Source: Escherichia phage SSL-2009a
DNA length: 44,899 nt
Sequence record: NC_012223.2
Strand: one strand, 5' to 3'
Part shown: piece after piece, positions 25,666 to 39,597 of the stretch
Position numbering within the stretch: position 1 is the stretch's first letter
Layout: each line of letters starts with the position of its first letter
The notes under the pieces: generated by a model
What the model was told of the DNA's origin: nothing
The model's input: only the letters and a program-made list of their open reading frames with translations
The model's database searches: none
Made by a program: the position numbers and the translations under genes

Positions 25666-25886
25666 TTTAAGCTCTCAATAAGGGTGTATCGGGCGCTGCG
25701 CGCGGTGTAAGAGTTGCACACGAAATGACAACGTCGGGTAATGACAAGCCACCCGGTAAGGTCCATACCCAGGAGGTGTTCAGGCCGTGACACGCGACGC
25801 ACACGATCGCGGCGCGGGTCAATGTTATAGTCTTTTTGCATTTGGTCTACGACCGCGTGGTCGCGGTCAACGATTAAGATATTCAT
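25662..25886 (-). CDS. hypothetical small protein
   Basis: 74 aa from ATG 25886 (ORF extends to GTG 25895); overlaps the 3' end of the Dam-like gene by about 20 nt and the HAD start (ATGA). Confidence 0.35.
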   Translation of the reverse strand: MNILIVDRDHAVVDQMQKDYNIDPRRDRVRRVSRPEHLLGMDLTGWLVITRRCHFVCNSYTARSARYTLIESLK

Positions 25887-26352
25887 GTAGCTCACTCTCG
25901 CTCATTATTTCAATCTGTGCGCTGCCGGTGGGCGGCGCTTCGTCAAAGATTATCAATTGCTGGCACTTGTTATTGCTCGGACCGACTTCACCGGTGACTG
26001 CATGTATGAATCGGATCCGCCAGTCCAGAAGAATTATCAGGTTTGCAGTCTTCCGGGCCAGCTTTGCCCACTTCGTCGACGTGTCCTGATTCAGCAGCAT
26101 GACGGTCCGGCGTCCGTGCGCTGCGCACTTAACCCACGGCAGCGGATCGGAATACGGCGGGTTGCACCACTTCCACCCTTTCAACTCTGACCAGTCCGCA
26201 TCGAGCGCGCTGTGCTCTGCCGTGAAGTAACGCGGTAGCAGGTGGTTGGCATCGCTCGCCGCCATGTCATAACGGAATCGGTACTTCCGACGAAGCGGTT
26301 TAAATAAAGCTGGCGGAGTGCGCCAGCCATCTTTTTGCTCACTCTTCTGCAT
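25867..26352 (-). CDS. DNA N6-adenine methyltransferase (phage Dam-like)
   Basis: 161 aa; N-terminal DGWRTPP and catalytic NPPY motif (WCNPPYSD). Confidence 0.75.
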   Translation of the reverse strand: MQKSEQKDGWRTPPALFKPLRRKYRFRYDMAASDANHLLPRYFTAEHSALDADWSELKGWKWCNPPYSDPLPWVKCAAHGRRTVMLLNQDTSTKWAKLARKTANLIILLDWRIRFIHAVTGEVGPSNNKCQQLIIFDEAPPTGSAQIEIMSESELHEYLNR

Positions 26353-26797
26353 GGTCTGGATCTATCGCGTACAGGGCAATTTTCTTATTACTGTTTAGAA
26401 CGCGTTGCACGCGCTTTGATTCCTCGGCGCCGAGCGGTCGGCAGTCGGAGTAGTAAGACCCGTTCCCCCGCCACGCAACCAGCACCAGGTCTTTCCGGTC
26501 AATCTTAGACTGGCGGCCCTTCGGACGCACGTACTCCTCGGCCCGTTTGCAATGCTCACGCAGCCCGTCGGCAGTGATGCGGTTTAGTGCAACGCTGGTG
26601 GTGTATCCGGTGCGCTGCATAATCCCCATCAATTCGAATAGCAGTTCGAAACGCTCCTCTAGCTCCTGGCGCACTTTCTTCTCCCCTTCATATAGCGCCT
26701 GGTTGGTGTCCGCCAACGCGTTCGCACGTTCGGCCTGTTCTCGAGCTTCGAGGCATTGCGCTGCCCAGTAATTTTTCTCTTCTTGTAAAATTTTCAT
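26339..26797 (-). CDS. hypothetical protein with N-terminal coiled coil
   Basis: 152 aa, SD GGAG 9 nt upstream; overlaps Dam start; no catalytic motif recognised. Confidence 0.5.
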   Translation of the reverse strand: MKILQEEKNYWAAQCLEAREQAERANALADTNQALYEGEKKVRQELEERFELLFELMGIMQRTGYTTSVALNRITADGLREHCKRAEEYVRPKGRQSKIDRKDLVLVAWRGNGSYYSDCRPLGAEESKRVQRVLNSNKKIALYAIDPDHAEE

Positions 26798-27040
26798 TTA
26801 TTTAATCTCCGTTGTGCGGATTTCATTGCGTGGAATAAGTTTGCCGCCAATCTCCACCCAGCAGACACCGTAGCGCCATTGGGTATTACGTCCCGTTTGC
26901 TCGGCGTACACGGTCTTGCATTCGTAGCGTTCCGTGTAGTAAATAGCCGTCGAAGGTATGCCAATACAACCGGCAATCATGAGGGTGAGTAGCACCCAAA
27001 ATCGAAGGTCGCCGTCGTAGTCGAAAAATAATGATTTCAT
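26798..27040 (-). CDS. small membrane protein
   Basis: 80 aa, SD GGAGA; one predicted TM helix (FWVLLTLMIAGCIGIPSTAIYY). Confidence 0.45.
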   Translation of the reverse strand: MKSLFFDYDGDLRFWVLLTLMIAGCIGIPSTAIYYTERYECKTVYAEQTGRNTQWRYGVCWVEIGGKLIPRNEIRTTEIK

Positions 27041-27059
27041 CTCACTGTCTCCGGGTATT

Positions 27060-27085
27060 AAAAAGGGCGTCCAAACCGGACACCC
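27060..27085 (-). terminator. intrinsic terminator hairpin on minus strand (between HNH-like gene and membrane protein gene)
   Basis: Minus-strand RNA GGGUGUCC-gguuu-GGACGCCC followed by UUUUU; located immediately downstream of a candidate promoter -10. Confidence 0.45.
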
Positions 27086-27087
27086 TC

Positions 27088-27121
27088 AATATAATGCAAC
27101 CAATATGATTATGCAACCAAT
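27088..27121 (-). promoter_or_regulatory. candidate promoter with two direct ATTGGTTGCAT sites (-35 TTGCAT, 17 nt, -10 TATATT)
   Basis: atgcaaccaat at 27094-27104 and 27111-27121 (+ strand); on the minus strand the first copy supplies TTGCAT, the second fills the spacer, TATATT at 27093-27088. Confidence 0.5.
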
Positions 27122-27444
27122 TTACGCATAAAAGTTAGGGTCGCGCGCAACGTCCACCAAATAGAGATTGCTGATCCGGTTGCCGTAATGGCCTGGCGTG
27201 CGCTGACGGCACACAACGGCAAAGCTGGGGGGATTGTATTGCCAGTCTCAATAATCCACGCCACGCGTGCGCCAGACAGCGTCTTGCCGTTGCATTCGAT
27301 ACGAGTACCGCCATCGGCAGTATTGAGGTTGCCAATCTTGCAGCCGGTGGACTTTAGGCGGATAACGCCTGTTTTGCTGTCGTAGGAAAAAAGCTGATTG
27401 GTCATTGCCACTGAAAAGTCGATGGCGTCGAATGCAGTATTCAT
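27109..27444 (-). CDS. HNH/AP2-like homing-endonuclease-related protein (putative)
   Basis: 111 aa, SD GAGGA; FSYDSKTGVIRLK...IECNGKTLSGARVAW resembles the N-terminal module of free-standing phage HNH endonucleases, but no clear HNH His was identified. Confidence 0.4.
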   Translation of the reverse strand: MNTAFDAIDFSVAMTNQLFSYDSKTGVIRLKSTGCKIGNLNTADGGTRIECNGKTLSGARVAWIIETGNTIPPALPLCAVSARQAITATGSAISIWWTLRATLTFMRKLVA

Positions 27445-28136
27445 TTTAAATTTTCCTCGTTAACCGCTATCGCGAAGCCGCGCGGGGTGAGCGACCTGAT
27501 TAATTTGGTGCGGGCAGATTTGCCTCCGAGGCGACTATACTGCTTCGAGTACCCTTTTTCAACGAATACCGGCTTTTTCTCTGGTATACGGAAGCCGTTG
27601 CCGGTCCATAAGCAGGTCAGCTTCGGATATGAATCGCGGGCGTTGATGTATTCCGGGAAGAGCGGGTGCACGTCATCCTCCGGCAAATAGCCGCCATACT
27701 CCCACGGGTCAAACGAGTGGTCCGGCTTACGCCATTGAGTGGAGAGCACGCTGCGCGGATTCTCAATCATATATGGCACTTCAAAGAAATCACCCAGGTA
27801 AGCGGCGATCTTCGCGGTGCGCACCGCCTTAAGCTGGAAGGCAGGGTCGCGGGCGCGTTTGCGCGGGAAAGCTGGCGCACCGCTCACCGCCAGATCCGTA
27901 CACGGCGGGAATGCGTATATGATATCCGGCGCGCCGAAATCACCATTCATCGCGCGGTCAACGAAGTCCAGGTCGATAAACTCATTACGATATCGAATGC
28001 CGCAACCATAGATCCGGTAATCAAGGTACAACCCGTGATCGGCTTCGGAGTAGTTGAAGCAATAACACTTATGCCCCATCTCGGCAGCACGCTCAATCAT
28101 CAAGCCGCTGCCGTCAAATAATGACCATATAATCAT
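27441..28136 (-). CDS. C5-cytosine DNA methyltransferase-like protein (short, no obvious target-recognition domain)
   Basis: 231 aa; motif I-like LFDGSG, PC motif AFPPCTDLAVSG, ENV-like MIENP; shorter than typical Dcm-class enzymes. Confidence 0.55.
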   Translation of the reverse strand: MIIWSLFDGSGLMIERAAEMGHKCYCFNYSEADHGLYLDYRIYGCGIRYRNEFIDLDFVDRAMNGDFGAPDIIYAFPPCTDLAVSGAPAFPRKRARDPAFQLKAVRTAKIAAYLGDFFEVPYMIENPRSVLSTQWRKPDHSFDPWEYGGYLPEDDVHPLFPEYINARDSYPKLTCLWTGNGFRIPEKKPVFVEKGYSKQYSRLGGKSARTKLIRSLTPRGFAIAVNEENLK

Positions 28137-29593
28137 TTGCGCGCCTTTTTAGCTTTCATGTATTCCATTAGATCGTCCTGGATATCGCGCTTACTGTCGC
28201 GACGCTCGGCGACCAGTTCGTCCAGTGTGCCGCGCGCCTGGATAATGTAGACGAATACTGGACGAGGGTGTCCGGCTTGCATCTGGCGAACTGGCCCGAT
28301 ACGCTCCACGATCTGCGCAAAGTGCTCATAGTTCCAGGTGTCTGAGAAGATAGCAAGGTGGTGTCCGCCATCCTGCAAGTTAAGGCCGTGACCCGCCGAA
28401 GCCGGGTGTGCGAACATGATGGGGATCTCACCCCTGTTCCACGCTTCCATATCCTTATTCCCTTGCTTTCCCTTACCCATCGCGACGCCGTGCGGGAATT
28501 TCTTCTTAAGACGTGCCAAGTCATGCTTGTACTGGTATGCGACGAGCAACGGCGCGCCGTTCAACTCCTCCACGATACTTTCCAGCGCGTCCAGTTTAGC
28601 GTCGTGAATTTTCACCCATTCGTCGGTGCGCTCGCCGTCTTCGTCGACTTTATACACGGCCCCGGAAGCAAGCTGAAGGCACTTAATAGTCTTCGACGCG
28701 GCGTTAGCCGCCTCCACTGTCCCGCTTTCCAGTTCGGCAAATAGCTCCGCTTCGAACTGGTCATAAATCTTGCGGGCTTTCTTCGGCAGGTCCACAACAA
28801 CCGGCGTATAGATCGGCTTGTCACACCCGAAGTATTCAGCCGCGTCAACTGTTAGCGACACGTCGGACAGGCGTTGTTGGATTTCTTTCTCGGAGTTCTT
28901 AAGCGGGGCGTGCTGCATAGTGAAGCTGCCAGGCTTAACAGGCTTGCTAATAAACCAGCGATCCGTGAATGCCTTATAACTACTGCCGAGGCGTTCGCCC
29001 CCGTCGACAAACCACGTCTGGCCCCATAGGTCTTTTAGTCCGTTTGGTGCGGGTGTGCCGGTCAGGTTAATCCAGCGCTTGACGTGCTTATGTGCGATCG
29101 CCGCCAGGGCGCGGGCGCGCTTACTTCCCTGCTTGCTTCTATATCCTTTCAGCTTAGTGGATTCATCGGCAACAACGACCGTAAAGGGCCACTCGTCGCC
29201 GCAATACTCAACAAGCCACTCAACCACATCATAGTTAACACAAACCACGTTAGCGTCGCTCTCAAGCGCAGCGATGCGGTCCTTCTCTGACCCGGTGCCG
29301 TCTACTACCAGCAGGGCGGGGAAGCGCCATTTTTCTTGTTCCGGGGGCCATGTGCCAGATGCAACGCGCAGCGGGGCCAGCACCAGTACGCGGTCCTCCT
29401 GGTTGGACAGGATGCCGGTCTGGAACATTTTATTCAGCGCCCACATGGTCGCGCCTGTTTTACCCGACCCCATTGTCGCCCAAATATTGCAGCGCTTATG
29501 CTTGAGGATGAACGCGGTTATCAACTTCTGATATTCGCGACGTCGGAAACGTGCCATATCTTTATTCCGCCTTTTTCCAGACTTCGGTTTCAC
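28133..29593 (-). CDS. SNF2-family DNA helicase
   Basis: 486 aa; Walker A TMGSGKTG, motif II VVADESTKLK, SNF2 motif III LTGTPAPN, C-terminal helicase motifs; GTG start with SD AAGGA. Confidence 0.8.
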   Translation of the reverse strand: MKPKSGKRRNKDMARFRRREYQKLITAFILKHKRCNIWATMGSGKTGATMWALNKMFQTGILSNQEDRVLVLAPLRVASGTWPPEQEKWRFPALLVVDGTGSEKDRIAALESDANVVCVNYDVVEWLVEYCGDEWPFTVVVADESTKLKGYRSKQGSKRARALAAIAHKHVKRWINLTGTPAPNGLKDLWGQTWFVDGGERLGSSYKAFTDRWFISKPVKPGSFTMQHAPLKNSEKEIQQRLSDVSLTVDAAEYFGCDKPIYTPVVVDLPKKARKIYDQFEAELFAELESGTVEAANAASKTIKCLQLASGAVYKVDEDGERTDEWVKIHDAKLDALESIVEELNGAPLLVAYQYKHDLARLKKKFPHGVAMGKGKQGNKDMEAWNRGEIPIMFAHPASAGHGLNLQDGGHHLAIFSDTWNYEHFAQIVERIGPVRQMQAGHPRPVFVYIIQARGTLDELVAERRDSKRDIQDDLMEYMKAKKARK

Positions 29594-29780
29594 TGTTCCA
29601 GTTCCTTTTTGTGGCGTCGTAGTTGGTGGCGTGTCCGATGTGCACGCCGGTCGCCCGGAAGCTCTTAAATTTTTGCCAGCACACCGTTAACGGCAGCGGG
29701 TAATTCATGCCTGCGATAAACCATACTCGATCGCCTGGTTTGCATTCGCCCAGTGTGGTTAGTCGGTAGTGTTCTTTCAT
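29562..29780 (-). CDS. hypothetical small protein
   Basis: 72 aa from ATG 29780 (SD GGGAG 8 nt upstream); overlaps helicase start. Confidence 0.35.
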   Translation of the reverse strand: MKEHYRLTTLGECKPGDRVWFIAGMNYPLPLTVCWQKFKSFRATGVHIGHATNYDATKRNWNSETEVWKKAE

Positions 29781-29790
29781 CGTCATGTCT

Positions 29791-29816
29791 CCCAAAAATG
29801 GCGGGACAAGCCCGCC
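29791..29816 (-). terminator. intrinsic terminator on minus strand (GGCGGG-cuugu-CCCGCC + UUUUU), contains a GCGGGACA unit
   Basis: Hairpin directly after the stop of gene 29824-29997; T-run on the minus strand. Confidence 0.45.
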
Positions 29817-29823
29817 GTATTAA

Positions 29824-29997
29824 TTATGCTTGCGCGGCACGGTAGCGGCGCTGCCGTTCACGCTCTTTTTTATTTCGGCACGATTTGCACTCGGCCCGAT
29901 ACCCGTCTGGGCTGCGCGCCGTCTTTCCGGTGTATTTGTGGAACTGGGATAGCGGTTTAACACAACCGCAATTACTACAACGTTTTTCTTCAACCAT
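29824..29997 (-). CDS. small zinc-ribbon protein with basic tail
   Basis: 57 aa from ATG 29997 (SD GAGGA 8 nt upstream); CxxC...C..C (CSNCGC ... ECKSC) followed by KKERERQRRYR. Confidence 0.4.
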   Translation of the reverse strand: MVEEKRCSNCGCVKPLSQFHKYTGKTARSPDGYRAECKSCRNKKERERQRRYRAAQA

Positions 29998-30028
29998 TTC
30001 TAAAATCCTCGATAGGGCTAACCGGCCC

Positions 30029-30062
30029 ACTATACTGCTACGCGACCAATTCAGCAACCAAT
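30029..30062 (-). promoter_or_regulatory. candidate promoter (-35 TTGCTG within ATTGGTTGCTG, 17 nt, -10 TATAGT)
   Basis: On the minus strand; -35 overlaps the last codons of the VRR-NUC gene, -10 at 30034-30029, upstream of the zinc-ribbon gene. Confidence 0.4.
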
Positions 30063-30316
30063 AAATCACAGTCGTCTATGTTGTCGATGACGCGAACGTC
30101 CGCACCACGGCGGGCCATTCGCTCATGTTCACGTATCTGGTGCGGCTTCGGTTTTCCGCCCGGGCGCTTCACTTCGACGAACACTATTTTGCCGTTGATG
30201 ATGATAATCAGATCGGGCGCACCTGCGCGCCCCTCCCATGCCACTTTACGGCAGAATCCGCCGACGGCTTTCACCTGTTTCATCAGGTATATTTGAATCC
30301 TGCCCTCGGGTGTCAT
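30038..30316 (-). CDS. VRR-NUC domain nuclease
   Basis: 92 aa; GAPDLIII...VFVEVKRPGGKPKPHQ matches the PD-(D/E)xK pattern of VRR-NUC proteins (D, E-x-K, Q). Confidence 0.65.
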   Translation of the reverse strand: MTPEGRIQIYLMKQVKAVGGFCRKVAWEGRAGAPDLIIIINGKIVFVEVKRPGGKPKPHQIREHERMARRGADVRVIDNIDDCDLLVAELVA

Positions 30317-30504
30317 TTTGTTTGCAACTCCACGTTACGCAGACGAAGGTCTACCGGTATCTCCGATCGACCAGTTAGCGCCAGCGCCAGGTTTTCCGGT
30401 GTGACAAGTGCCGTAATGGTCTTGCCACGTTCCAGTCTAATGACGATGCTAATCTCATCATTGTCCGCCGCGCCAGCGCGCATAATGCTCATATCTGCTT
30501 TCAT
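30313..30504 (-). CDS. hypothetical small protein
   Basis: 63 aa from ATG 30504 (SD AGGAA 8 nt upstream; ORF extends to TTG 30549); immediately downstream of the DNA polymerase stop. Confidence 0.4.
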   Translation of the reverse strand: MKADMSIMRAGAADNDEISIVIRLERGKTITALVTPENLALALTGRSEIPVDLRLRNVELQTK

Positions 30505-30508
30505 AATA

Positions 30509-32800
30509 TTATTTCCTGTACCTATACATAATGTCGCCTTCCGCGGCAAGCGGGAATCCTTTCGCCCAAACCGGCAGGTCGCACATCAGCGCGCACAACT
30601 CCTCGGTTGTGTAGTCGTCGGTATCCGGCACTTCGGTTATCAGTTCATCGTGTACGGACAGTACGATCTCATACCCCGCAGCTTCAACGCCAGGCATGGA
30701 CCATGCGAGGATATCGCGGCACAGCGCCTGCACGATGTTTTCCGTCAGTTTGCCGCCGTAGGTGTACTGGAATCCCCACTGGCGCGTCGTCTGATTCTCA
30801 CCCTGATATTTAATGCGGGTGCTGGTGCGTTTCTTGCCGGTGTCTTCGTCGATCTCGGTCGTGACAGACAGCGCGATGCCGGGGTAGCTCATGATGCGCC
30901 CCGACGGTAACTCAATTTTCAACCACCACCCCGCGGCGTTCGGGTCGTCGCGTTCCTCGTCGAAGGTTGGGTCATGCTTCGCCTTCGTGCGGACTATCTT
31001 GAGCGCTTTCTTTCCATCCGGGCGAACGTTCGCGCCCGCCCAGTACGCTTTGCCCGGATTGCGGATCGCACAGAGCACCGCGTCTTCCAGTTCGGCCCAA
31101 AATGCTACCGTCTTCGGGTGCGACTCACGCCACATACGTTTGATTGCATCACACGTCAGCCATACGTTTTTCGGCAGTATGTAAGTCGGGCGCTCGTCCT
31201 TCTTGCCCGGCTTCGGCGGGCGCTTCGCTTCGTTAATGCGGGCGTATTCATAACCCCGTTTCGCCGCCGCCCATATGTGATCGGGGAATGTGCCCTTCAT
31301 CACTTCAGCCATCGCGTAAAGGTCGAGGCCCAGGTTTTTAGCGAACTGCAAGAACGCCGCCACGCCGCCACCATAGCCCAGGCCCAATTCGCACGCCTTA
31401 CCGATCTGGCGTAAGTCTTTGCGGTTGGCTTTAATGTATTCTGGGTCAAGGCCGAACATCTTACCGGCAGTTTCACAATAAATGTCGCGACCGGCCTTAA
31501 ACACCATTAGCGCTGTTTTCTCGCCAGCGATCCAGGCAAGTCCACGCCCTTCCACGTTGGAGTAGTCCGCTACGACAAACTTCTTACCCTTCGCCGGAAT
31601 AATGCACCCACGAACAGTCGAGGCCGTTAGCTTCGATATGTCATACGCCCAGTGCGCTGTCCCACGTAACAGGGAGTTGATGCCGTTGGTGAGCATGTGC
31701 GACCGCACCCAAAACGCGACGTCGCTCTCGCCCTCACGGCGCTTAATCTTCCCTTCGTGGTCGTCGCTATACTCGCCTCGCGCCAGGTTTTGCGGCTGGA
31801 AGCCTTTACCGGCCCAGCGTAGCGTGCGCTTTGCCCCACCATACTGAAGACAACCACGGCGGCGACCATCGGCGGACAGACCATTTACAAGCGGATTGTA
31901 CTTAGTCGATGCCGTTGATGACGCACCGAGGCGCATTTCGATAAGCACTTTGCCTTCGTCGGGGAAGTCTGGGTCTTCCAGCAGGTCGTTAAGCGTGGAT
32001 TTCTGCGCGTTGTGAATTGTGAACGCAGGCGCGAGGTCGCGCAGCGCTGGCAAGAAGTCATTGCCAGTCAGCTTACCGCCGAAGCGCTCCCAGGCTTCTT
32101 CCTTCAATTCTTCCTTATGCGCCTGTACCGCTTTGATCGCAGCGCGCGCCAGGTCAACGTCCACATAGAAGCCGCGGTCATTGATCAACTGGTCAATAAG
32201 CAGGATTTCGTCTTCCTTCGGCGTGTTACCCCAGTCCGGTATGCGCCAATAGACTTCCCTCATCGCTATAATATCCAGCGCGGCATAGCGCAGGAATTTA
32301 GCCCATTCTTCAGGGTGAGTCTCGCGAGTGTAGCGGCGGATTTTGTAAGTCTTAGGGGTGGGCTTACAGAATCGTTTAATCAGCGCCTTGCCTGCCTTAT
32401 CCTTCGCGTGCTCTGCGTCAACGCCCAGCACCTGGCATTGCATATCGAGGCTACCGGGCAGCGCGTGGCGAAAGGCCATAATCATGGTATCTTCGATCTG
32501 ACACACTGGCAGGTCAATGCCCCACTTCTCGCGAATAACCAGGCGGTCAAACAGGAGGCCGTTAGCCATCACTATTTTTGCTTTCTTGCGGGATACCCGG
32601 CGGAGCGCCTTGCGCAGTTCACGCGGCATTGTGGGGGACTCGGTGCAATCCCACGTTTGCACGCGGCCTTCGTCGATGGCGTATGTGCAAATCATAATCT
32701 CAGTAGTTGGGTGTTCCGCGTAGGCGTATGCGCCCACTTTCTTCAGATCCACCCCGCTAAATGTCTCGGTATCGAGAAACAGGCGTTCAAAGTCTTTCAT
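30509..32800 (-). CDS. DNA polymerase I-type (family A) with 3'-5' exonuclease domain
   Basis: 763 aa; N-terminal exo motif LFLDTETFSG; polymerase motif A VADYSNVEGRGLAW, motif B RQIGKACELGLGYGGG, motif C VHDELI. Confidence 0.9.
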   Translation of the reverse strand: MKDFERLFLDTETFSGVDLKKVGAYAYAEHPTTEIMICTYAIDEGRVQTWDCTESPTMPRELRKALRRVSRKKAKIVMANGLLFDRLVIREKWGIDLPVCQIEDTMIMAFRHALPGSLDMQCQVLGVDAEHAKDKAGKALIKRFCKPTPKTYKIRRYTRETHPEEWAKFLRYAALDIIAMREVYWRIPDWGNTPKEDEILLIDQLINDRGFYVDVDLARAAIKAVQAHKEELKEEAWERFGGKLTGNDFLPALRDLAPAFTIHNAQKSTLNDLLEDPDFPDEGKVLIEMRLGASSTASTKYNPLVNGLSADGRRRGCLQYGGAKRTLRWAGKGFQPQNLARGEYSDDHEGKIKRREGESDVAFWVRSHMLTNGINSLLRGTAHWAYDISKLTASTVRGCIIPAKGKKFVVADYSNVEGRGLAWIAGEKTALMVFKAGRDIYCETAGKMFGLDPEYIKANRKDLRQIGKACELGLGYGGGVAAFLQFAKNLGLDLYAMAEVMKGTFPDHIWAAAKRGYEYARINEAKRPPKPGKKDERPTYILPKNVWLTCDAIKRMWRESHPKTVAFWAELEDAVLCAIRNPGKAYWAGANVRPDGKKALKIVRTKAKHDPTFDEERDDPNAAGWWLKIELPSGRIMSYPGIALSVTTEIDEDTGKKRTSTRIKYQGENQTTRQWGFQYTYGGKLTENIVQALCRDILAWSMPGVEAAGYEIVLSVHDELITEVPDTDDYTTEELCALMCDLPVWAKGFPLAAEGDIMYRYRK

Positions 32801-32967
32801 TGCTTAATCCTCACCACGGCGTCAGCACTGCCGATCATGGAGAAGATACCGTCGGAAAGGGTAATCTCCTCGCCGTTGTTGCGAATCTCGGCAACTGTGA
32901 AATATTCGCCCAGCATTTTGGACCATACTTGCATTCCGACTTTTACTTCGCTGGCTTTAATACGCAT
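32797..32967 (-). CDS. hypothetical small protein (56 aa), translationally coupled to DNA polymerase
   Basis: ATG at 32967, stop overlaps the polymerase start codon (ATGA); below the 60-aa cut-off of the ORF track, found by manual translation. Confidence 0.35.
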   Translation of the reverse strand: MRIKASEVKVGMQVWSKMLGEYFTVAEIRNNGEEITLSDGIFSMIGSADAVVRIKQ

Positions 32968-32982
32968 TTTTCATTGTCCTAT

Positions 32983-33006
32983 TAAAAAGCCCGCATTAAG
33001 CGGGCT
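32983..33006 (-). terminator. intrinsic terminator on minus strand after SSB gene
   Basis: GCCCGC-loop-GCGGGC with UUUUU on the minus-strand transcript. Confidence 0.5.
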
Positions 33007-33025
33007 TGAATAGTGGGCTTTGCCC

Positions 33026-33805
33026 TTAACGGCGGCGACGTTTACGTGGCGCTTCGTCTTCGTCGTCGTCCTCATCTTCGTCATCGCGTGGCTTACGACG
33101 TTTACGAGGTTTTTCATCTTCGTCGTCTTCGTCATCGCGGCGCTTGGACTTTTTGGACTTGCGCGGCTTGTCGTCTTCGTCATCGTCATCACGACGTTTT
33201 GACTTTTTGGACTTGCGCGGGCTTTCATCTTCGTCATCGTTGTCCAGGTCTTCGTCTGAGCACGAAGATCCGCCACCGCCGAAGGCTTCGCCGTCATCAC
33301 GGAAGCGCAGACCCAAAAGACCAGCACCGAGTCCCTTGCCGTTGGTATTGTTCCACGCCCAGATATCGAGGGACACGTTGCAATAACAACCGGAGTAGAT
33401 CTCCTGGCCTTCGATCTCGTCGCCTTCTACGGTCAGACCTTGTTCAGTCTGCTTCTCGCCGAGTGACGTTTGAATGATCGGCTGCTTGAACGATTTGGCG
33501 TTGATGTACAACATGCCTTCGAATTCTTCGGTTACTTCGTCGCGCTCGTCACCGTCGCGAACTGCGCATTCCTTAGAATCCTGGGCGTAGTGGCGGTCCA
33601 TCCACTTATCGGCATTCTTCTCGGATTTCAGCTTGTCGGTGAGCACTGCGCGCGCTGCCGCTTCCACTTTGTCCACCTGCGGATCTTCTTTATCCAGAAG
33701 AATCACGGCACGGTATGCCGGTTTTTGTCCATCCTGTTTAGGGGTATCACGTTCCCAAATTTTCAGGAAACATACGCGCACTTTTTTCAGGTTGACTTTA
33801 GCCAT
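33026..33805 (-). CDS. single-stranded DNA-binding protein candidate (T7 gp2.5-like) with repetitive mixed-charge C-terminal tail
   Basis: 259 aa from ATG 33805 (SD AGGAA); N-terminus MAKVNLKKVRVCF resembles gp2.5-like SSBs (by recollection); C-terminal 70 residues are tandem D/E-rich and KPRKSKKSKRR-type repeats. Confidence 0.5.
   Translation of the reverse strand: MAKVNLKKVRVCFLKIWERDTPKQDGQKPAYRAVILLDKEDPQVDKVEAAARAVLTDKLKSEKNADKWMDRHYAQDSKECAVRDGDERDEVTEEFEGMLYINAKSFKQPIIQTSLGEKQTEQGLTVEGDEIEGQEIYSGCYCNVSLDIWAWNNTNGKGLGAGLLGLRFRDDGEAFGGGGSSCSDEDLDNDDEDESPRKSKKSKRRDDDDEDDKPRKSKKSKRRDDEDDEDEKPRKRRKPRDDEDEDDDEDEAPRKRRRR
33030..33245 (-). repeat. tandem coding repeats (about 55-bp period) in the SSB C-terminal tail
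   Basis: ttggactttttggacttgcgcgg repeated at 33144-33166 and 33198-33220 with flanking gtc/ttc triplet runs. Confidence 0.55.
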
Positions 33806-33861
33806 TTTCCAATTCCTCATTTTCACATGTATCGGGGTTATTGTGAGCCACCCCGTTCGGC

Positions 33862-33886
33862 TTGGTTGCCAATCTACTTGGTTGCG
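33862..33886 (+). promoter_or_regulatory. two direct TTGGTTGC half-sites (plus-strand orientation) between minus-strand genes
   Basis: cttggttgcc (33861-33870) and cttggttgcg (33877-33886), spaced 16 bp; orientation opposite to the flanking genes. Confidence 0.35.
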
Positions 33887-33895
33887 CCTAAGCGG

Positions 33896-34138
33896 TCAAG
33901 CACTTTCATTAAAAAGATTTCTGGTCACGTAGTTGGTGGCGTTCTCAATCCAGCTTAACGGCGGTCGGTCGATGTTCTTCTCCACCCAGTGGACGGCAGC
34001 GTCACTATATCCGTCATCAAGCCAGCGGGTCGGATGGCGAATCATCCACGCCACCATTAACACGCCTTGCACGCAATGCAGGATAAAGCCCAGCGCGCCG
34101 AGTAAAAACATCAATAAGATTGCAAATACTTTATTCAT
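33896..34138 (-). CDS. small membrane protein (two predicted TM helices)
   Basis: 80 aa, SD GAGGA; hydrophobic segments FAILLMFLLGALGFIL and VLMVAWMI. Confidence 0.45.
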   Translation of the reverse strand: MNKVFAILLMFLLGALGFILHCVQGVLMVAWMIRHPTRWLDDGYSDAAVHWVEKNIDRPPLSWIENATNYVTRNLFNESA

Positions 34139-35561
34139 TGCCTAAGTCCTCGTCAGTGGCCTCCGACCACGCAGGGCGCGGGTCGTCGATTGGTGCTAAC
34201 ACCGGTTTAGCGGGTGCGCGTGTGATTTTAGCACACAGCTTCGCCCACACTTTCGGTTTTTCGTCCTTCAGTACCTTCTCGGCATCTGTCGGGCTGAGCA
34301 ATGTTTCTTTGTACATCACATCGCGCTTGATCCGGGCCTTCGTGAAGATTTCAATCACTTCGCTCTCGTCCGCCCACTTACGGATCCCTTCCTTACCGGC
34401 AACCATCTTGAGGCCCAGCGATTCGCCATCGCCCGCCATGACCGCCTTGAATACCGCGGACTCGATAGCCTTGATGTGCTGGCGCATTGCGTCCAGGCCT
34501 TCATAAGCCTTGCGCAGTTCCGCAGCGCTCATAGCGCCTGGTGTGGATTCCTTCTTGCCTCGTTTAGCACGTCGTGCCGCCTTCCGGGCTTCGCGGGCCA
34601 TATTGCGATCGTGGTTGGCGCATTCTTCCTCGGTCGCCTCGCTCACGTCGTCGCCCAGGTCTTCGTCGGTTGCCGTTGGTGGTGTCATAGTGTCGATTGC
34701 GGCCTTCGCCCGGACGCTGCACTGGTCCGCAAATCTGCACCACTGGCACGCATCGACGCTGGGCCGGAAGTCCGCGCGGGTTAGTCCCTTCTTGCCGCGG
34801 GCGTATGCATCGAGCGCGGCGATAGCACGCTTGGACGCAAACTTCGCGAATATCTCCAGGGCTTCTACCGAAATATCCCATTCCGACGCCCCACCGCAAT
34901 ACGGCTGGAAGATAACCAGGCGCACGGACGTAATGTCGTACATGGTTTGCAGCTTGCGCAGCAGGCCGAGCGCGTACAACATAAGCTGTTTGTTTTCTTT
35001 CGCCTCGACCTTATGCCGCCCGGTCTTCAGGTCGCCAACAATCAGCATGTACGTTCCGTCGGTCTTTTTCATGACCATGACCATATCGGCAGTACCGAAC
35101 GTTTTAATCCTGTCGCCGTCGATCTCGAAGCCTGAGTGAAGGACGCGGGTAAGATCGGCGCGCATCTCAAGCTGGACAAACTCCGCCACTTCAAGGAGCG
35201 GACGCCAGTGGTCGATGTATGCATCGCACTGCTTCACCATGTCGTCGTTGACCAGTACGCCGCCTTTCGGTGCTTTCGGGTGGGCCTTTACTGGCCCCTT
35301 GCCTTCGTTCTCGACGTAGCACCCTTTATACGTCTTAGCGGTTATTTTCTTCTCACCGGCGATAATGCGGTTTAGTACCACCTCAGATACGGTGTGCATA
35401 CTCGTACCGTTAATCGCGGCTTGCCCGGATTCGTTCGGGATATCTTTTTCTACCACCAGGGCGGCGGGACACCCCATCCATTTTTTAGCACCGGATGGGC
35501 CAAGTAATGAGTGTTCCGTATTACTACCTGATTGCGTTTTACGTTTTGGTTTAATCGCCAT
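34131..35561 (-). CDS. Cas4-like / RecB-family PD-(D/E)xK exonuclease
   Basis: 476 aa; N-terminal Cys (WMGCPAA), nuclease core GDLKTGRHKVEAK with QLMLYAL (QxxxY), C-terminal Cys triad CQWCRFADQC consistent with a Cas4-type Fe-S cluster. Confidence 0.65.
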   Translation of the reverse strand: MAIKPKRKTQSGSNTEHSLLGPSGAKKWMGCPAALVVEKDIPNESGQAAINGTSMHTVSEVVLNRIIAGEKKITAKTYKGCYVENEGKGPVKAHPKAPKGGVLVNDDMVKQCDAYIDHWRPLLEVAEFVQLEMRADLTRVLHSGFEIDGDRIKTFGTADMVMVMKKTDGTYMLIVGDLKTGRHKVEAKENKQLMLYALGLLRKLQTMYDITSVRLVIFQPYCGGASEWDISVEALEIFAKFASKRAIAALDAYARGKKGLTRADFRPSVDACQWCRFADQCSVRAKAAIDTMTPPTATDEDLGDDVSEATEEECANHDRNMAREARKAARRAKRGKKESTPGAMSAAELRKAYEGLDAMRQHIKAIESAVFKAVMAGDGESLGLKMVAGKEGIRKWADESEVIEIFTKARIKRDVMYKETLLSPTDAEKVLKDEKPKVWAKLCAKITRAPAKPVLAPIDDPRPAWSEATDEDLGNE

Positions 35562-35749
35562 TATTCCACCCTTGAAAACTGAGCAATGTAATATTCATGT
35601 TTAACACCGGCCCGCTTCGCGGCTTCGTTCATGGTAGCCGCCAAACCTCGGGCTTGAGTCCAGCAGCAATTCCAGTTCTGATTCATAACAATTTCTGGTT
35701 GCTCATCGCCGGTAATACGGCAACGAAATAAAACAAAGAATATAGCCAT
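35561..35749 (-). CDS. hypothetical small protein
   Basis: 62 aa, SD GGGAGA; stop overlaps the start of the Cas4-like gene (TAATG). Confidence 0.35.
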   Translation of the reverse strand: MAIFFVLFRCRITGDEQPEIVMNQNWNCCWTQARGLAATMNEAAKRAGVKHEYYIAQFSRVE

Positions 35750-36001
35750 TTATTTTGTCTCCCAGCGGTCAATTGTTTTTGCTTCGGATGCAACTGCGAA
35801 GCGAACATATTCCAGATTAGAATCCGCCCAAATATAAAAGTCGGGGTTAGTAAATGTGGTGCGCTTAATTTGCGCGGGGGTGTTGCGGCGTTTATCAATT
35901 ACAGCAACGCGCGATTGAAAGCTGCCGATGCGTTCGAATAACCAATAGTACGGGCGCTGGTCGCGGGAATCCACCGCCTCGATTAGCGTGAAGCGTGCCA
36001 T
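35750..36001 (-). CDS. hypothetical protein
   Basis: 83 aa, SD GAGGA 7 nt before ATG 36001. Confidence 0.45.
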   Translation of the reverse strand: MARFTLIEAVDSRDQRPYYWLFERIGSFQSRVAVIDKRRNTPAQIKRTTFTNPDFYIWADSNLEYVRFAVASEAKTIDRWETK

Positions 36002-36012
36002 TGTCTCGTCCT

Positions 36013-36041
36013 CTAAAAAGAGGCCCGCAGATTAGCGGGCC
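36013..36041 (-). terminator. intrinsic terminator on minus strand after the first gene of the leftward operon
   Basis: GGCCCGC-loop-GCGGGCC followed by UCUUUUU on the minus strand; overlaps the leader of the next gene. Confidence 0.45.
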
Positions 36042-36049
36042 GGATAATA

Positions 36050-36592
36050 TTAGTCTTCCAGTTCGAAATAAGTTTCGACGATTTCTTTTAGCTCGGTGTG
36101 GAAGTCTTCGACGTCGTCGTCTTCCAGTTTAGCGATTGATTTGATCTCGAACGATTCCAGCAGGTCGTCGAATTCGTCGTTCGCATCATCATCATCGCCG
36201 CCTGCAATAATAGCGGCATACTGTTTGATTTCGTCGCGCATCTCTGCCAGCGGGTCGGCTTCTTTCTTACCTTTGCCTTTCGCTGGTGCTTTTTTACCCT
36301 TCGCCGGTTTTTCGTCTTCGGCTTCATCATCATCGTCGTCATCCTCTACGACTTCTTTTTTGGCCTTTCCTTTAGACTTGGTTTCTTTTGCCGCGCCTTT
36401 TTTCGCCTTGGGCGTATCTTCGACTTCGTCCTGATCGTCGTCTTCGACTTCAGTCTCCGGCTTTGCCTTGCCTTTCTTAGCGGTGCCGTTTGCTTTTGGG
36501 CCTACGGCAGCGCCCACAGTTTCATAATGTTTAGCGATGGTTTCCAGTGCTACTACGCCGCGAGTGATCAGGTTTACGATTTGCTCAAACAT
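36050..36592 (-). CDS. highly charged acidic/lysine-rich protein (first gene of leftward early operon)
   Basis: 180 aa from ATG 36592 (SD GGAG 7 nt upstream; the six-frame ORF extends to 36820 but the upstream part lacks a start context); alternating poly-D/E and K-rich blocks. Confidence 0.5.
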   Translation of the reverse strand: MFEQIVNLITRGVVALETIAKHYETVGAAVGPKANGTAKKGKAKPETEVEDDDQDEVEDTPKAKKGAAKETKSKGKAKKEVVEDDDDDDEAEDEKPAKGKKAPAKGKGKKEADPLAEMRDEIKQYAAIIAGGDDDDANDEFDDLLESFEIKSIAKLEDDDVEDFHTELKEIVETYFELED

Positions 36593-36795
36593 GGTATATC
36601 TCCGATTGGTTAAGTTTAGGTGTCGGCAGTAAACTTCGTCGGTGGCCTTAACATAGTGCCAGGTTACGCGTTCTCCCTTTCGGGTAGTGGACCTGGTTAT
36701 ATAATCACGGTTGGGAATCCTGACACTTCGATCCGGCCCCTGCGTTGCCCCTCTCCAGTTTGCGTCCTGCATCCTGTCGACGAGGTGAATATTAG

Positions 36796-36805
36796 ATTGG
36801 TTGCA
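36796..36805 (+). promoter_or_regulatory. ATTGGTTGCA motif copy in the divergent control region
   Basis: Exact 10-mer; TTGCAG could serve as a -35 with TAATTT about 16 nt downstream. Confidence 0.35.
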
Positions 36806-36825
36806 GAAGGGAGTCAACAACTAAT

Positions 36826-36862
36826 TTAAAAAAAAAGCGCCGAAGCAAAATGCGACGGCGCT
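36826..36862 (-). terminator. terminator-like hairpin with A9/T9 tract in the divergent control region
   Basis: AGCGCCG-13 nt loop-CGGCGCT preceded on the + strand by AAAAAAAAA (U-run on the minus-strand transcript); no annotated gene upstream on the minus strand. Confidence 0.35.
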
Positions 36863-36932
36863 AACCAATAAGAGACAATGAGACGGGAGTATTATTACAC
36901 GCGTGCGCGCCCGTTTCAATATTCCAAAGGAG

Positions 36933-36961
36933 TTGACACCCTGCGGTTTTAGGTGTAGTTT
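36933..36961 (+). promoter_or_regulatory. candidate sigma70 promoter for the rightward early operon (TTGACA, 17 nt, TAGTTT)
   Basis: Consensus -35 TTGACA at 36933-36938, 17-nt spacer, weak -10 TAGTTT; about 30 nt upstream of ATG 36993. Confidence 0.4.
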
Positions 36962-36962
36962 C

Positions 36963-36979
36963 GTTGGTCATTAACCAAC
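36963..36979. promoter_or_regulatory. inverted repeat GTTGGT-catta-ACCAAC overlapping the leader of the HTH gene
   Basis: Perfect 6-bp arms; the arm sequence matches the core of the ATTGGTTGCA family. Confidence 0.35.
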
Positions 36980-36992
36980 CGGAGACAGAATA

Positions 36993-37322
36993 ATGAATAT
37001 CAACGACGCAATCGAAATGTTAACTAAGACTGTTTGCAGTGAGACTAGCCGGTCGTGGGCTTATACCGATGCCGTTGGGGCGGTGCTATTTGAGGTCGAG
37101 CGCCTGCGCAGTGTAGAAAAAGAATTACGCGCCAGGCTGGAATTGCTCAACGGTACAGCGGCGAGCAAGCTGCAGAAGCACAATGAAGAAATGGAAGAAT
37201 ATAAAAAACAGGTTATCAGTTTGCGCGCCGAGGGCAAATCCTGGGCGATGATTGCCGAGTTGACCGGAATTAATCAGAGCACAGTGCGCTCCTGGGTACG
37301 CAATAATAAAACTTCTAAGTAA
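36993..37322 (+). CDS. helix-turn-helix DNA-binding protein (putative transcriptional regulator)
   Basis: 109 aa, SD GGAGA; C-terminal HTH-like segment SWAMIAELTGINQSTVRSWV. Confidence 0.55.
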   Translation: MNINDAIEMLTKTVCSETSRSWAYTDAVGAVLFEVERLRSVEKELRARLELLNGTAASKLQKHNEEMEEYKKQVISLRAEGKSWAMIAELTGINQSTVRSWVRNNKTSK

Positions 37323-37332
37323 GGTCACGGCA

Positions 37333-39597
37333 ATGAGCTTAATTAAATTCGCTGTAACAAGACCCGCTAAAAAAGGCGAAAAAGCCAGGGCGGAAAACTT
37401 CCAGATGACTACCGAAGAGTTTTTCGAATTTATCAATGATGCGAAAGAAATCTCCTCGGTGCATATCAACAAAACGGAAGATAAAGCCGAGTATGCACGC
37501 CGCAAGCGTAAGGCCGACGGCATCGTGGCGTATACCAGTGACGGATTGCGTCGCAAGACCAGTGCGGTGGACCGCTCGATCCTGTTCTTCGATATTGACC
37601 GTACTGACACCCGCACCCTACGCCGCTGCCGTAAGGCGTTCACCGACGCGGGACTGGAGCACGTCTTCCACACCACAACCGGCGACCGTCACCCACTGAA
37701 AGGTGGAACGCGTTGCGCTCGCTTCCTTGTGTTGACCGACAAGCCTGTACCGGCTGAAGACCTGGGCCGTGTCCAGTATGCGCTATTACACCAACTGGGC
37801 CTGTCAGACGTGGACTTCGACGACTGCACGAAAGACACAAACCGCCTTATGTACCTGCCACACCAGCAGTCTGTTATTAAGTGCCACTATGGCAAGCGCG
37901 CCCGCGTCCGTCGTCTGCTCCGCCAGGCTGACAAGCTGGGAGTTGAGAAAGAGGAAGTCCGCCGCGAACTGACCCAGGGCGACGACGCAGTGGCAGACGG
38001 CATTCTGGACTGGTGCTTCCAGGCAGGATTCGAGGAGTTATCTTCCGGTCGCGGTTATGAAGTGCCGTGCCCGAACGAACATCTGCACAGCGGCGAAGGG
38101 TCAACGGCTATCATGGTCAAGGATGGCGAGATCCGTTTCAAGTGTATGCACACCGGCAACGAGTGTTGCTCGGAACTGAATAGACACCAGCACCTGGCGC
38201 TACGTCTTATAGGTATCCCGGACCACCTGAACGTCGAGCCACACAATATGTCCCGTAAGCAAATCGCCGCCATCCTGCCGGGGTTGGACGACGAGGAGGT
38301 CGAATCCTTATACGAACATATTGTTGATGCGGTTGGTGACGGCGAAGAATACGGCGTGTGCACCGATGCGGATCTGGATAACGAGCCGGTCGCACTATTC
38401 AGTAAGCACGACCCGATTATCGAGGGGTTGATTAACTTTAAATCGACCTGGTATCTCGCCGGTGAGTCGAACATTGGTAAGTCTTTCTATGTGCTGGGGC
38501 AAATGGCGTCAGTATCTGCCGGTATTCCGTTTGGGGGGGCGAAGGTCGTCCAGTGCCACAACTTCTATTTCGATGCGGAAGGTGGCGAAGCCTCAAATCA
38601 GCGTAAAGAAGCATTGCAGATTAAATACGAGCACGACCTGGACAAGCTGCACATTATCGATCTGCAATCACGCGGCTGGGATATCACCAGCAAATCCGGC
38701 TTGCGCGAAGTTATCAGCTTCATCAACCGCACCGCTAACGGCGAACCAGTTGGCCTGGTGGCGTTCGACTCACTCAACCAGACTGTTGCGCTGCGGTCCG
38801 CCGATGCTAAACCGTTTGACGAGAACAACGCCAGCGATATGGGTGAAGTGGTCAAAGCGCTGAAAGCCATTGCGGAAAATACAGGTGGCAGTGCTGGCGT
38901 CATCCACCACCCGGCGAAAGGTGCAAACGGCAGCAGAACCCCACGCGGATCCGGTGCGCTGCATGGTGCTGTCGATTCAGCTTTCTTCCTGGAACAGCCA
39001 GACGACAACCAGCCAGGCCAATTGAACCTGTATCACGAAAAGTCACGTAACGGCATCAAGCAAGCGCCGCGTGGCTTCGTCCTGCTCAAGTGCAAGGTGA
39101 AGGTAGATCTCCGCAAGTCGGAAGCGTTCGCGTCGCACCAGTCCACCAGCACCGGGCCGGACTTCGGCGACGTCGTTGCCGGTTGGGACGTCAAACCAAT
39201 TGCGTCCACGCCACGCGACGAGACTCTATACCTCGTACCGGTCGCCCTGGCACCGTTCGCTATAGAACAGGCGAAGGCCGCAGGGAAAGCCGCAGTTAAG
39301 GAAGAGAACACCGCAGGACCGCGCAACGAAAAAGAGAAAGTGCTTTATGCGGCCCTGGAAAAACTGATGGAAGATAACCCGGACCATACTGGATTCAGTA
39401 AATCGGCAATCGTCCGCCAGGCGGGACTCGCGAAGGGGGGCACTTCGACGAAGGCAATCGACGATATGGTCGAGCGCGGCGTGATTGGTTTCTATACAGA
39501 TCCGCACACCGGGGCCATCTATGGGTCGTCGAATTTAGTTATCAAATCGGATATCCCCATTACGCTTTCGGCGACCGATGACGACCTGAAAGATTAA
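37333..39597 (+). CDS. DNA primase/helicase-type replication protein (P-loop ATPase with zinc-binding region)
   Basis: 754 aa; Cys/His cluster CPNEHLHSGEG...FKCMHTGNECC; Walker A GESNIGKS and Walker B-like LVAFDSLNQ; immediately followed by iteron locus B. Confidence 0.7.
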   Translation: MSLIKFAVTRPAKKGEKARAENFQMTTEEFFEFINDAKEISSVHINKTEDKAEYARRKRKADGIVAYTSDGLRRKTSAVDRSILFFDIDRTDTRTLRRCRKAFTDAGLEHVFHTTTGDRHPLKGGTRCARFLVLTDKPVPAEDLGRVQYALLHQLGLSDVDFDDCTKDTNRLMYLPHQQSVIKCHYGKRARVRRLLRQADKLGVEKEEVRRELTQGDDAVADGILDWCFQAGFEELSSGRGYEVPCPNEHLHSGEGSTAIMVKDGEIRFKCMHTGNECCSELNRHQHLALRLIGIPDHLNVEPHNMSRKQIAAILPGLDDEEVESLYEHIVDAVGDGEEYGVCTDADLDNEPVALFSKHDPIIEGLINFKSTWYLAGESNIGKSFYVLGQMASVSAGIPFGGAKVVQCHNFYFDAEGGEASNQRKEALQIKYEHDLDKLHIIDLQSRGWDITSKSGLREVISFINRTANGEPVGLVAFDSLNQTVALRSADAKPFDENNASDMGEVVKALKAIAENTGGSAGVIHHPAKGANGSRTPRGSGALHGAVDSAFFLEQPDDNQPGQLNLYHEKSRNGIKQAPRGFVLLKCKVKVDLRKSEAFASHQSTSTGPDFGDVVAGWDVKPIASTPRDETLYLVPVALAPFAIEQAKAAGKAAVKEENTAGPRNEKEKVLYAALEKLMEDNPDHTGFSKSAIVRQAGLAKGGTSTKAIDDMVERGVIGFYTDPHTGAIYGSSNLVIKSDIPITLSATDDDLKD

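Follow-up and report, generated by a model that had tools for sequence, protein, structure and literature searches.

The subject of this analysis is a densely packed block of genes on the minus strand of Escherichia phage SSL-2009a (NC_012223.2), at positions 28133-35561 of the stretch of 44,899 nucleotides (nt) that is called the window here. The limits of the block are the stop end of an SNF2 gene (28133) and the start of a DUF2800 nuclease gene (35561). A reading made from the sequence alone had interpreted it as a self-sufficient toolkit for replication and recombination-dependent repair. The block is the canonical early replication/recombination block of Dhillonvirus, the HK578/JL1-like siphophages of Escherichia coli, and as such it is already known. 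Its proteins were assigned with profiles from Pfam, PHROG and NCBIfam and with sequence searches of the PDB, while folds were compared by means of AlphaFold2 (AF2) models and Foldseek. Gene starts were corrected from overlong raw open reading frames (ORFs) using the annotated phages Bas14 and JL1. The principal genes, together with a primase-helicase gene beyond the block, are the following (lengths in amino acids, aa):

28133-29557, minus strand: SNF2-family ATPase/translocase, 474 aa (PF00176, phrog_62, PDB matches, motifs)
30038-30316, minus strand: standalone VRR-NUC nuclease, 92 aa (PF08774, phrog_93, PDB matches)
30509-32800, minus strand: family A DNA polymerase, 763 aa, with an N-terminal 3'-5' exonuclease (PF00476, phrog_17, PDB matches to Taq and Klenow)
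33026-33820, minus strand: protein that binds single-stranded DNA (SSB), of the T7 gp2.5 binding/annealing type (PF10991, formerly DUF2815, Enc34_ssDNA-bd; phrog_112; PDB matches)
34131-35561, minus strand: DUF2800 nuclease, 476 aa (Pfam PF10926 and PDDEXK_1, phrog_69, AF2/Foldseek)
37333-39597, plus strand: primase-helicase, 754 aa, divergent and 1.8 kb past the block (AAA_25, phrog_3228, AF2/Foldseek)

All genes that had been named before are found on the minus strand within the limits of the block. Pol A, the SNF2 protein, the Cas4-like nuclease, the DUF2815-type SSB and the VRR-NUC protein had been named correctly, as Pfam and PHROG matches indicate, and profile searches did not place these ORFs in unrelated families. 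NCBIfam gave an above-threshold family for none of the module proteins.

The nuclease matches DUF2800 (PF10926) over the complete profile (1-368 of 368; E=2.2e-65, 221.7 bits with a cut-off of 21), and furthermore PDDEXK_1 (E=5e-8) and phrog_69 (E=3e-105). It consists of a RecB/Cas4-like PD-(D/E)XK domain at about residues 18-295, a charged linker and a conserved C-terminal domain (344-476). The catalytic residues D159, D177, K179, Q192 and Y196, which make up the D...D-x-K and QxxxY motifs, are invariant in 26 homologues and also in five distant ones. Four cysteines, C31, C272, C275 and C281 (C-X240-C-X2-C-X5-C), flank the nuclease core; the codon of the first lies at 35469-35471 and the C272-X2-C275-X5-C281 segment at 34719-34748. 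This tetrad is invariant in the 26 homologues (52-97% identity), while the other five cysteines of the nuclease vary. Family-wide conservation was judged on these close-to-medium homologues and on seven distant phages, and CX2CX5C is retained in the nucleases of Enc34, Burkholderia E332, Acinetobacter 4316 and Pectobacterium MA11.

A direct PDB sequence search with the nuclease gave no match. The AF2 model, of moderate confidence overall (predicted local distance difference test score, pLDDT, of 66.5; confident only for the core, 46-256), has among its best matches the Cas4-family protein ACE1 (9IAC, E=4e-6), MGME1 (5ZYV), Cas4 SSO0001 (4IC1), AdnAB (9NP6, 6PPU), AddAB (3U44), EXO5 (7LWA) and type I-C Cas4 (8D3L). 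Given the PD-(D/E)XK core, the tetrad and these fold matches, the description "Cas4-like with a putative Fe-S cysteine tetrad" was a fair one. Nevertheless, the protein is a member of DUF2800 and not of Cas4, the word Cas4-like denoting a resemblance. With the Fe-S nucleases of the RecB family (AddB, AdnAB, Cas4, EXO5), which are its best structural matches, it shares the PD-(D/E)XK core, QxxxY and C...CX2CX5C. It differs from them in that it belongs to a separate Pfam family, stands alone without a helicase partner domain or a CRISPR context, has its own C-terminal domain and acidic tails, and carries a cluster that is only putative here.

The nuclease is 97.1% identical to Bas14_0045, or B14T, with identical numbering that includes D177 and K179. 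B14T has been purified as residues 18-295, and its D177A/K179A mutant is inactive; the enzyme cuts the base of the stem-loop in multicopy single-stranded DNA (msDNA) and thereby triggers retron type IX (bioRxiv 10.64898/2026.07.14.737667). The biochemical assay that had been proposed for the SSL-2009a nuclease has thus in effect been carried out by others on a nearly identical protein. Two records of other hosts, MG065648.1 ("Campylobacter phage A144") and OQ221563.1 ("Acinetobacter phage NJ01"), contain a nuclease gene that shares about 94% identity with its counterpart in the E. coli Dhillonviruses; a likeness of this degree between phages of unrelated hosts points to mislabelled or contaminant records.

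The polymerase matches phrog_17 over residues 5-763 (E=3e-130), and the Pfam model DNA_pol_A (PF00476; E=1.7e-16) only over residues 393-482. Its exonuclease motifs are intact (ExoI D10-x-E12, ExoII N80 and D85, ExoIII Y172 and D176), and so are the polymerase motifs A (D412, in DYSNVE), B (RQIGKACELGLGYGG, from the PDB alignment) and C (H717-D718-E719, in VHDE at 716-719). No 5' nuclease domain was detected in this protein. An NCBIfam assignment to DpoZ was rejected (21.6 bits with a cut-off of 500). The protein is 98% identical to bas14_0041. In SECphi4, SECphi6 and SECphi18, mutations of the polymerase at its proofreading cleft (T13, E91, R171, D176) allow escape from Borvo (bioRxiv 10.1101/2022.08.27.505566); these four residues occupy the same positions in SSL-2009a.

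The SSB matches PF10991 (E=3e-31, profile 2-173 of 176), phrog_112 (E=2e-57) and the PDB entries 4KLK (E=4e-12), 4JG2, 5ODJ and 5ODK, with an OB fold at about residues 10-190. Enc34 ORF6, of the same type, has a gp2.5 fold and binds single-stranded DNA (PMC5686142), and in the Dhillonviruses SECphi4, SECphi6 and SECphi18 the T7-like SSB triggers Retron-Eco8 (bioRxiv 10.1101/2022.08.27.505566). The OB fold is followed by an acidic segment (SDEDLDNDDEDE) and then by alternating basic and acidic blocks, the basic ones of the type PRKSKKSKRR, up to a final RKRRRR. Unlike the Enc34 tail, this tail is not purely acidic. A 54-nt tandem repeat at 33123-33240, the copy number of which varies between phages, encodes it (tail at 33026-33260); it is 19 aa longer than in Bas14 (raw ORF of 266 aa, and 245 aa in Bas14). 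Mixed acidic and basic tails are shared by the Jerseyvirus and by metagenomic relatives; the SSBs of Enc34, MA11, E332 and 4316 lack them.

The SNF2 protein matches SNF2-rel_dom (PF00176; E=2.8e-11, 43.5 bits with a cut-off of 24.9) and phrog_62 (E=5e-157), whereas its score against Helicase_C (18.7 bits) lies below the cut-off of 23.5. PDB matches include yeast Snf2 (E=3e-9) and the Sulfolobus SNF2/Rad54 protein 1Z63, the latter over both lobes (41-475). The motifs GSGKT, DEST and TGTP are intact, and the protein is 97% identical to bas14_0037. The raw ORF extends to 29593 (GTG); the start annotated in Bas14 and JL1 corresponds to Met13. SNF2 enzymes are translocases on double-stranded DNA and not strand-separating fork helicases.

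The VRR-NUC protein matches PF08774 (E=2.5e-6, 28 bits with a cut-off of 23.8) and phrog_93, and it aligns over nearly its full length with the PDB entries 4QBN (93 aa, E=2.3e-23) and 4QBO (92 aa, E=2.4e-14). The PD...E-V-K site is aligned (APDL...VEVK is kept), and the helical insertion of the FAN1 type is missing. As dimers, standalone VRR-Nuc proteins cleave four-way junctions (PMC4103454). The protein is therefore probably a Holliday-junction resolvase.

The primase-helicase is composed of an AEP primase-polymerase domain, a Cys/His zinc site, a RecA-fold AAA_25 domain, a winged-helix-like C-terminal region and an acidic tail. It matches Pfam AAA_25 at residues 357-531 (E=7e-20) and phrog_3228, "replicative helicase-primase", with 1144 bits; the DnaB-like phrog_19 is matched weakly (E=2e-4). 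A Walker A motif (GESNIGKS) and an AEP DxD motif (FFDID, 85-89) are present, and D87, D89, C246, C271, H273, C279 and G382-K383-S384 are invariant in the alignment. A direct PDB sequence search gave no match. In the AF2 model (moderate confidence, pLDDT 68.1) the N-terminus resembles the cyanophage S-2L AEP PrimPol (6ZP9, E=1e-4), and the centre resembles RecA, RAD51 and DnaB folds (DnaB 4ESV, E=2.6e-3). The DnaB_C Pfam model was not matched, and strict membership of the DnaB family is therefore not supported. The gene adjoins the module in every relative examined.

The sequence-only reading is mostly right but needs three corrections, two of which follow from these data. The helicase question had been put as SNF2-type rather than DnaB-type, while a helicase with an AEP primase and a RecA fold is encoded at 37333-39597. 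In addition, both the primase and the replicative helicase are absent from 28133-35561. Because the primase-helicase accompanies the module from outside this interval, the block is not self-sufficient and SNF2 is no substitute for a replicative helicase. The ORFs examined (25867-39597) yielded neither a ligase nor a clamp nor a primer-removing 5' nuclease with adequate support.

A nucleotide comparison matches the block to 162 phage records at 92-96% identity; in 135 of these the match spans 80% of the block or more. Nearly all of the records belong to Dhillonvirus, and HK578, JL1, SECphi4 and BASEL phages are among them. The same genes in the same order are present in HK578, JL1, SECphi4, SECphi6, SECphi18 and BASEL Bas14-Bas18, with identical numbering of nuclease and polymerase; identities of the module proteins to those of Bas14 (TheodorHerzl) are 90-98%. 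Compared with Bas14, SSL-2009a has an additional 63-aa ORF, which is also absent from JL1, the 19 extra residues in the SSB tail and 37 extra residues in a neighbouring 180-aa protein.

Beyond the genus, the proposed comparison of synteny revealed the same gene order in relatives. The order nuclease, SSB, PolA, VRR-NUC, SNF2, with an adjacent, divergent primase, occurs in three metagenomic relatives, and the same order is seen in Enc34, Streptococcus P9, a Jerseyvirus, Acinetobacter 4316, Burkholderia E332 and Pectobacterium MA11. In Enc34 and the "Nazgul-like" phages, the Jerseyvirus and P9 the core order is kept with the primase adjacent (in P9 inside the block), although nuclease identity is only 21-49%. 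DUF2800 homologues are present in 1337 of 50,697 phage records (about 2.6%). The nuclease and the SNF2 protein had been regarded as less common components, the third claim that fails, in view of this number and of the recurrence of the gene order in unrelated phage families. The duf2800-gp2.5-polA module has been described before (PMC8093625), and the replication module of Enc34 has been listed (PMC5686142). Beside the polymerase, Acinetobacter 4316 (L011:15418-15996) and Burkholderia E332 (L012:12970-13572) have an extra gene, annotated as "DNA polymerase III subunit beta" or "DNA polymerase III protein". It may encode a clamp-like processivity factor, which is absent from the SSL-2009a stretch.

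In several aspects the system is reminiscent of T7 (gp4, gp5, gp2.5, gp6, gp3): both have a fused primase-helicase, a proofreading family A polymerase, an SSB with the gp2.5 fold, an exonuclease and a resolvase. The structural homology of the Enc34-type SSB to gp2.5 has been stated (PMC5686142). There are also differences from T7. The primase of SSL-2009a is of the AEP type and not TOPRIM, its nuclease is a PD-(D/E)XK enzyme with a cysteine tetrad and not a FEN-type enzyme such as gp6, its resolvase is VRR-NUC and not endonuclease I, and an SNF2 motor is added.

We consider it very likely that the genes form a T7-like replisome combined with exonuclease/annealase recombination, in which SNF2 and VRR-NUC process branched DNA. 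Replication together with recombination, as proposed for the block from the start, is also the best-supported interpretation. The analysis itself establishes family membership, intact catalytic motifs, a conserved order of genes and that a primase-helicase is encoded nearby; the following division of labour is inferred. The divergent primase-helicase would unwind and prime, and the family A polymerase would synthesise DNA with its own proofreading exonuclease, while the gp2.5-type SSB would coat single-stranded DNA. The DUF2800 nuclease would resect or trim DNA ends and flaps. Nuclease and SSB could then act as an exonuclease/annealase pair, comparable to gp6 and gp2.5 of T7, for recombination-dependent replication, repair and concatemer formation. 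The SNF2 ATPase, as a translocase on double-stranded DNA, may remodel forks or promote branch migration. Since a dedicated primase-helicase is encoded at 37333-39597, SNF2 would be an accessory motor and not the replicative helicase. Finally, the VRR-NUC protein, presumably a dimer, would cut four-way junctions before packaging, as T7 endonuclease I does.

Some points weigh against this interpretation or narrow it. The activities are known from orthologues, whereas the SSL-2009a proteins themselves are read from sequence; annealing by the SSB is suggested by its family, and the role of SNF2 as an accessory motor by family properties only. As B14T cuts at a stem-loop, the nuclease may be a structure-specific endonuclease and not a processive exonuclease. 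The Fe-S cluster is putative, deduced from the cysteine signature, and the cysteine-bearing segments (1-45 and 257-310) have pLDDT values below 50 in the AF2 model. In the Streptococcus P9 homologue (L009:5681-6838) the catalytic residues and the first cysteine are kept, but the CX2CX5C cysteines are gone. With three of the four cysteines lost there, not every member of the family has the putative Fe-S site. Furthermore, a promoter scan performed at the level of chance (13 found, 11.4 expected).

Another view of the block deserves attention, although we regard it as rather doubtful: the nuclease, SNF2, VRR-NUC and a small zinc-ribbon protein might serve mainly in counter-defence, while replication proper would need only polymerase, SSB and primase-helicase. 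Bas14 escapers whose nuclease gene carries a missense or truncating mutation are viable, and the authors of that study suggest that recombination modules help to mend the breaks that genome-targeting defences introduce (10.64898/2026.07.14.737667). The zinc ribbon bears the PHROG label "Lar-like restriction alleviation", and the block is followed directly by two genes for DNA methyltransferases. The label, however, is without Pfam support. In the same study, escapers of Queuovirinae could not be isolated, which the authors read as a sign that the trigger is possibly essential there (10.64898/2026.07.14.737667). That these genes strictly accompany the polymerase, and in a set order, even in distant phages argues for an integrated role in DNA metabolism. 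Moreover, counter-defence overlaps with the T7-like replication and recombination system proposed above and does not exclude it.

It is very unlikely that the DUF2800 protein acts as a genuine Cas4, manipulating the acquisition of CRISPR spacers by the host, instead of being a nuclease of replication and recombination. The presence of ACE1, SSO0001 and type I-C Cas4 among the top structural matches would agree with such a function, as would the Cas4/AddB-type cysteine signature and the name "Cas4 family exonuclease" given to homologues in some databases. However, the end-resection nucleases AdnA and AddAB match equally well, a comparison that is also drawn by others (10.64898/2026.07.14.737667). 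Only DUF2800 and PDDEXK_1 were matched by the nuclease, with no Cas4 family model among the Pfam or NCBIfam results, and Rfam gave no CRISPR-related RNA family in the whole window. In phages whose hosts span many phyla, the gene is also fixed beside those of the SSB and the polymerase. Least probable of all is that SNF2, although the sole protein with helicase motifs inside 28133-35561, is a replicative helicase replacing the DnaB type in a kit that would be self-sufficient by itself, in view of the "replicative helicase-primase" kept beside the module in every relative examined and of the established properties of SNF2 enzymes.

Three proteins of this probably T7-like system have a short acidic motif in common. 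In the six-frame translation of the whole window, [AS][ST]D[DE]DL occurs four times, and all copies belong to this system. They are listed here with one related copy:

33245-33256, minus strand: SSB, CSDEDLD, directly after the OB fold (six-frame motif search)
34143-34154, minus strand: C-terminus of the nuclease, EATDEDLGNE followed by the stop, present in 26 of 26 homologues
34656-34667, minus strand: second copy in the nuclease, in the inter-domain linker, TATDEDLGDD (six-frame search and alignment)
39577-39588, plus strand: C-terminus of the primase-helicase, SATDDDLKD followed by the stop, present in 23 of 26 homologues
38359-38388, plus strand: related copy CTDADLDNEP in the primase-helicase linker (aa 343-352), D347 and L348 invariant

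Local shuffles of the three proteins contained on average 0.02 copies, and none out of 20,000 reached three. The strings QDDL (C-terminal helix of SNF2) and DCDL (VRR-NUC) were left out of the count because they sit in conserved structured segments.

The tails vary from one distant lineage to another, yet they match within each phage. In Dhillonvirus the peptide, acidic with a hydrophobic part, has the form ATD[DE]DL. In Enc34 the tails of primase, nuclease and SSB end in DEDEV (D[ED]DEV-stop). Those of primase, nuclease, SSB and SNF2 in Pectobacterium MA11 end in DDDL or DDEL after AF (AFDxxDDDL-stop), and in Burkholderia E332 the primase-helicase, nuclease, SSB and VRR-NUC carry EDDFE/D. In SSBs of the Enc34 type the tail is acidic throughout, with the shared motif at its end, whereas in SSL-2009a the motif follows the OB fold and is itself followed by acidic and basic repeats and an arginine-rich end. 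A crude permutation test over six lineages, applied to each of the three pairs of proteins, gave p=0.0014, 0.0028 and 0.018.

The sharing of a motif by primase-helicase, nuclease and SSB suggests a common docking site. It could be imagined, with about even chances of being right or wrong, that the tails form a co-evolving "SSB-tail code" by which accessory factors dock on a single receptor, with the nuclease as a subunit of the replisome. In T7, gp2.5 and gp4 bind the polymerase gp5 through their acidic tails, and the acidic tails of SSB and primase-helicase in SSL-2009a recall these. The binding of the gp2.5 tail to gp5 is cited in PMC5686142. Among the large proteins only the polymerase is always free of the motif, and by analogy with T7 it is a candidate for the common receptor. 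The other candidate is the groove of the SSB OB fold, which in crystals accepts the tail of a neighbouring SSB. If docking occurs, the nuclease might be recruited for instance for the removal of primers or flaps, because the polymerase is without a 5' nuclease domain. In the literature searched no description of the shared tail motif was found, and it is the only possibly new point of this analysis.

Small ORFs and a hairpin are interleaved with the principal genes of the block:

29562-29786, minus strand: 74-aa ORF of unknown function (phrog_9291, E=1e-46), 92% identical to bas14_0038
29800-29816, separating the 74-aa ORF from the zinc-ribbon gene: terminator-like G+C-rich hairpin with a T run on both strands (consensus scan only)
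29824-29997, minus strand: zinc-ribbon protein, 57 aa, CxxC...CxxC followed by a basic tail (KKERERQRRYR), 95% identical to bas14_0039
30313-30504, minus strand: accessory 63-aa ORF of unknown function between the PolA stop and the VRR-NUC start (phrog_1222, E=2e-33)
32797-32967, minus strand: 56-aa ORF of unknown function (phrog_10102, E=1e-42), 96% identical to bas14_0042
33896-34138, minus strand: hydrophobic 80-aa ORF of unknown function (phrog_11211, E=1e-52), 91% identical to bas14_0044

The zinc ribbon with a basic tail, mentioned in the sequence-only reading, is real, though with 57 aa, as in Bas14, it is shorter than the raw ORF. Its match to phrog_5558, named "Lar-like restriction alleviation protein" (E=1e-18), covers a stretch to which N-terminal zinc modules of endonuclease VII/HNH phrogs also align. 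No Pfam match was obtained at E<=0.01 and NCBIfam gave a weak zinc-finger match only, and the "Lar-like" label, having no independent support, was not adopted. The 63-aa ORF is present in 54 phage records, compared with 162 that have the module, and on this distribution it is read as a presence/absence accessory gene. The 80-aa ORF lies between nuclease and SSB, and its start overlaps the nuclease stop; its N-terminal half is strongly hydrophobic and it is probably a membrane protein. Small ORFs at a similar place are found in two related loci (L006 and L007).

Scans with Rfam and for tRNAs were empty over the whole window, and terminator-like sites were slightly enriched in the consensus scan. 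As to operon structure, our claim is confined to gene orientation and two strong predicted hairpins. A strong terminator-like hairpin at 36022-36041 follows the gene of the 180-aa protein (36050-36592, minus strand), the first of the leftward unit. This protein (phrog_3127, unknown function) is made up largely of alternating Lys-rich and Asp/Glu-rich blocks, and its extra length relative to the Bas14 copy is due to a 37-aa insertion. The divergent intergenic region of 400 bp (36593-36992) contains about four TTAACCAAYCGGAGA-like elements, at 36599-36613, 36790-36802, 36862-36875 and 36971-36985. Two of these lie directly upstream of the start codons of both divergent first genes and cover their GGAG ribosome-binding sites. 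The elements may be operators for the helix-turn-helix protein encoded at 36993-37322, or they may be shared translation-initiation regions. For this protein (plus strand, 109 aa) the PHROG/RefSeq name "transposase" was rejected, as only helix-turn-helix Pfam models (Sigma70_r4_2, HTH_23) were matched.

Directly downstream of SNF2, two DNA methyltransferase genes are found on the minus strand, one of the Dam family (PF05869, 25867-26352) and one belonging to phrog_757 (27441-28136), which is annotated as a Dcm-like C5 enzyme in Bas14. An HNH-like ORF (27109-27444) is situated between them. The PHROG/RefSeq "DNA ligase" at 26339-26797 (minus strand, 152 aa) was rejected, with no Pfam match. Between the Dam-like gene and a phosphatase-like gene (25195-25665) lies a 74-aa ORF (25662-25886, minus strand), the place and length of which match those of Ksap1, a Dhillonvirus protein sensed by KpAvs2 (PMC11564622); this correspondence is one of synteny only.

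The module itself adds nothing new: well over 100 genomes in GenBank carry it with annotation, and near-identical phages have already been used to study three of its proteins. Several defence systems sense Dhillonvirus proteins of replication and recombination, namely retron IX the nuclease, Retron-Eco8 and Hachiman the SSB, and Borvo the polymerase. Having the same module, SSL-2009a would be expected to be sensitive to retron IX, Retron-Eco8, Hachiman and Borvo. The shared tail motif, if real, would provide a directly testable model for the recruitment of nuclease, primase-helicase and SSB to a replisome that is widespread among phages.

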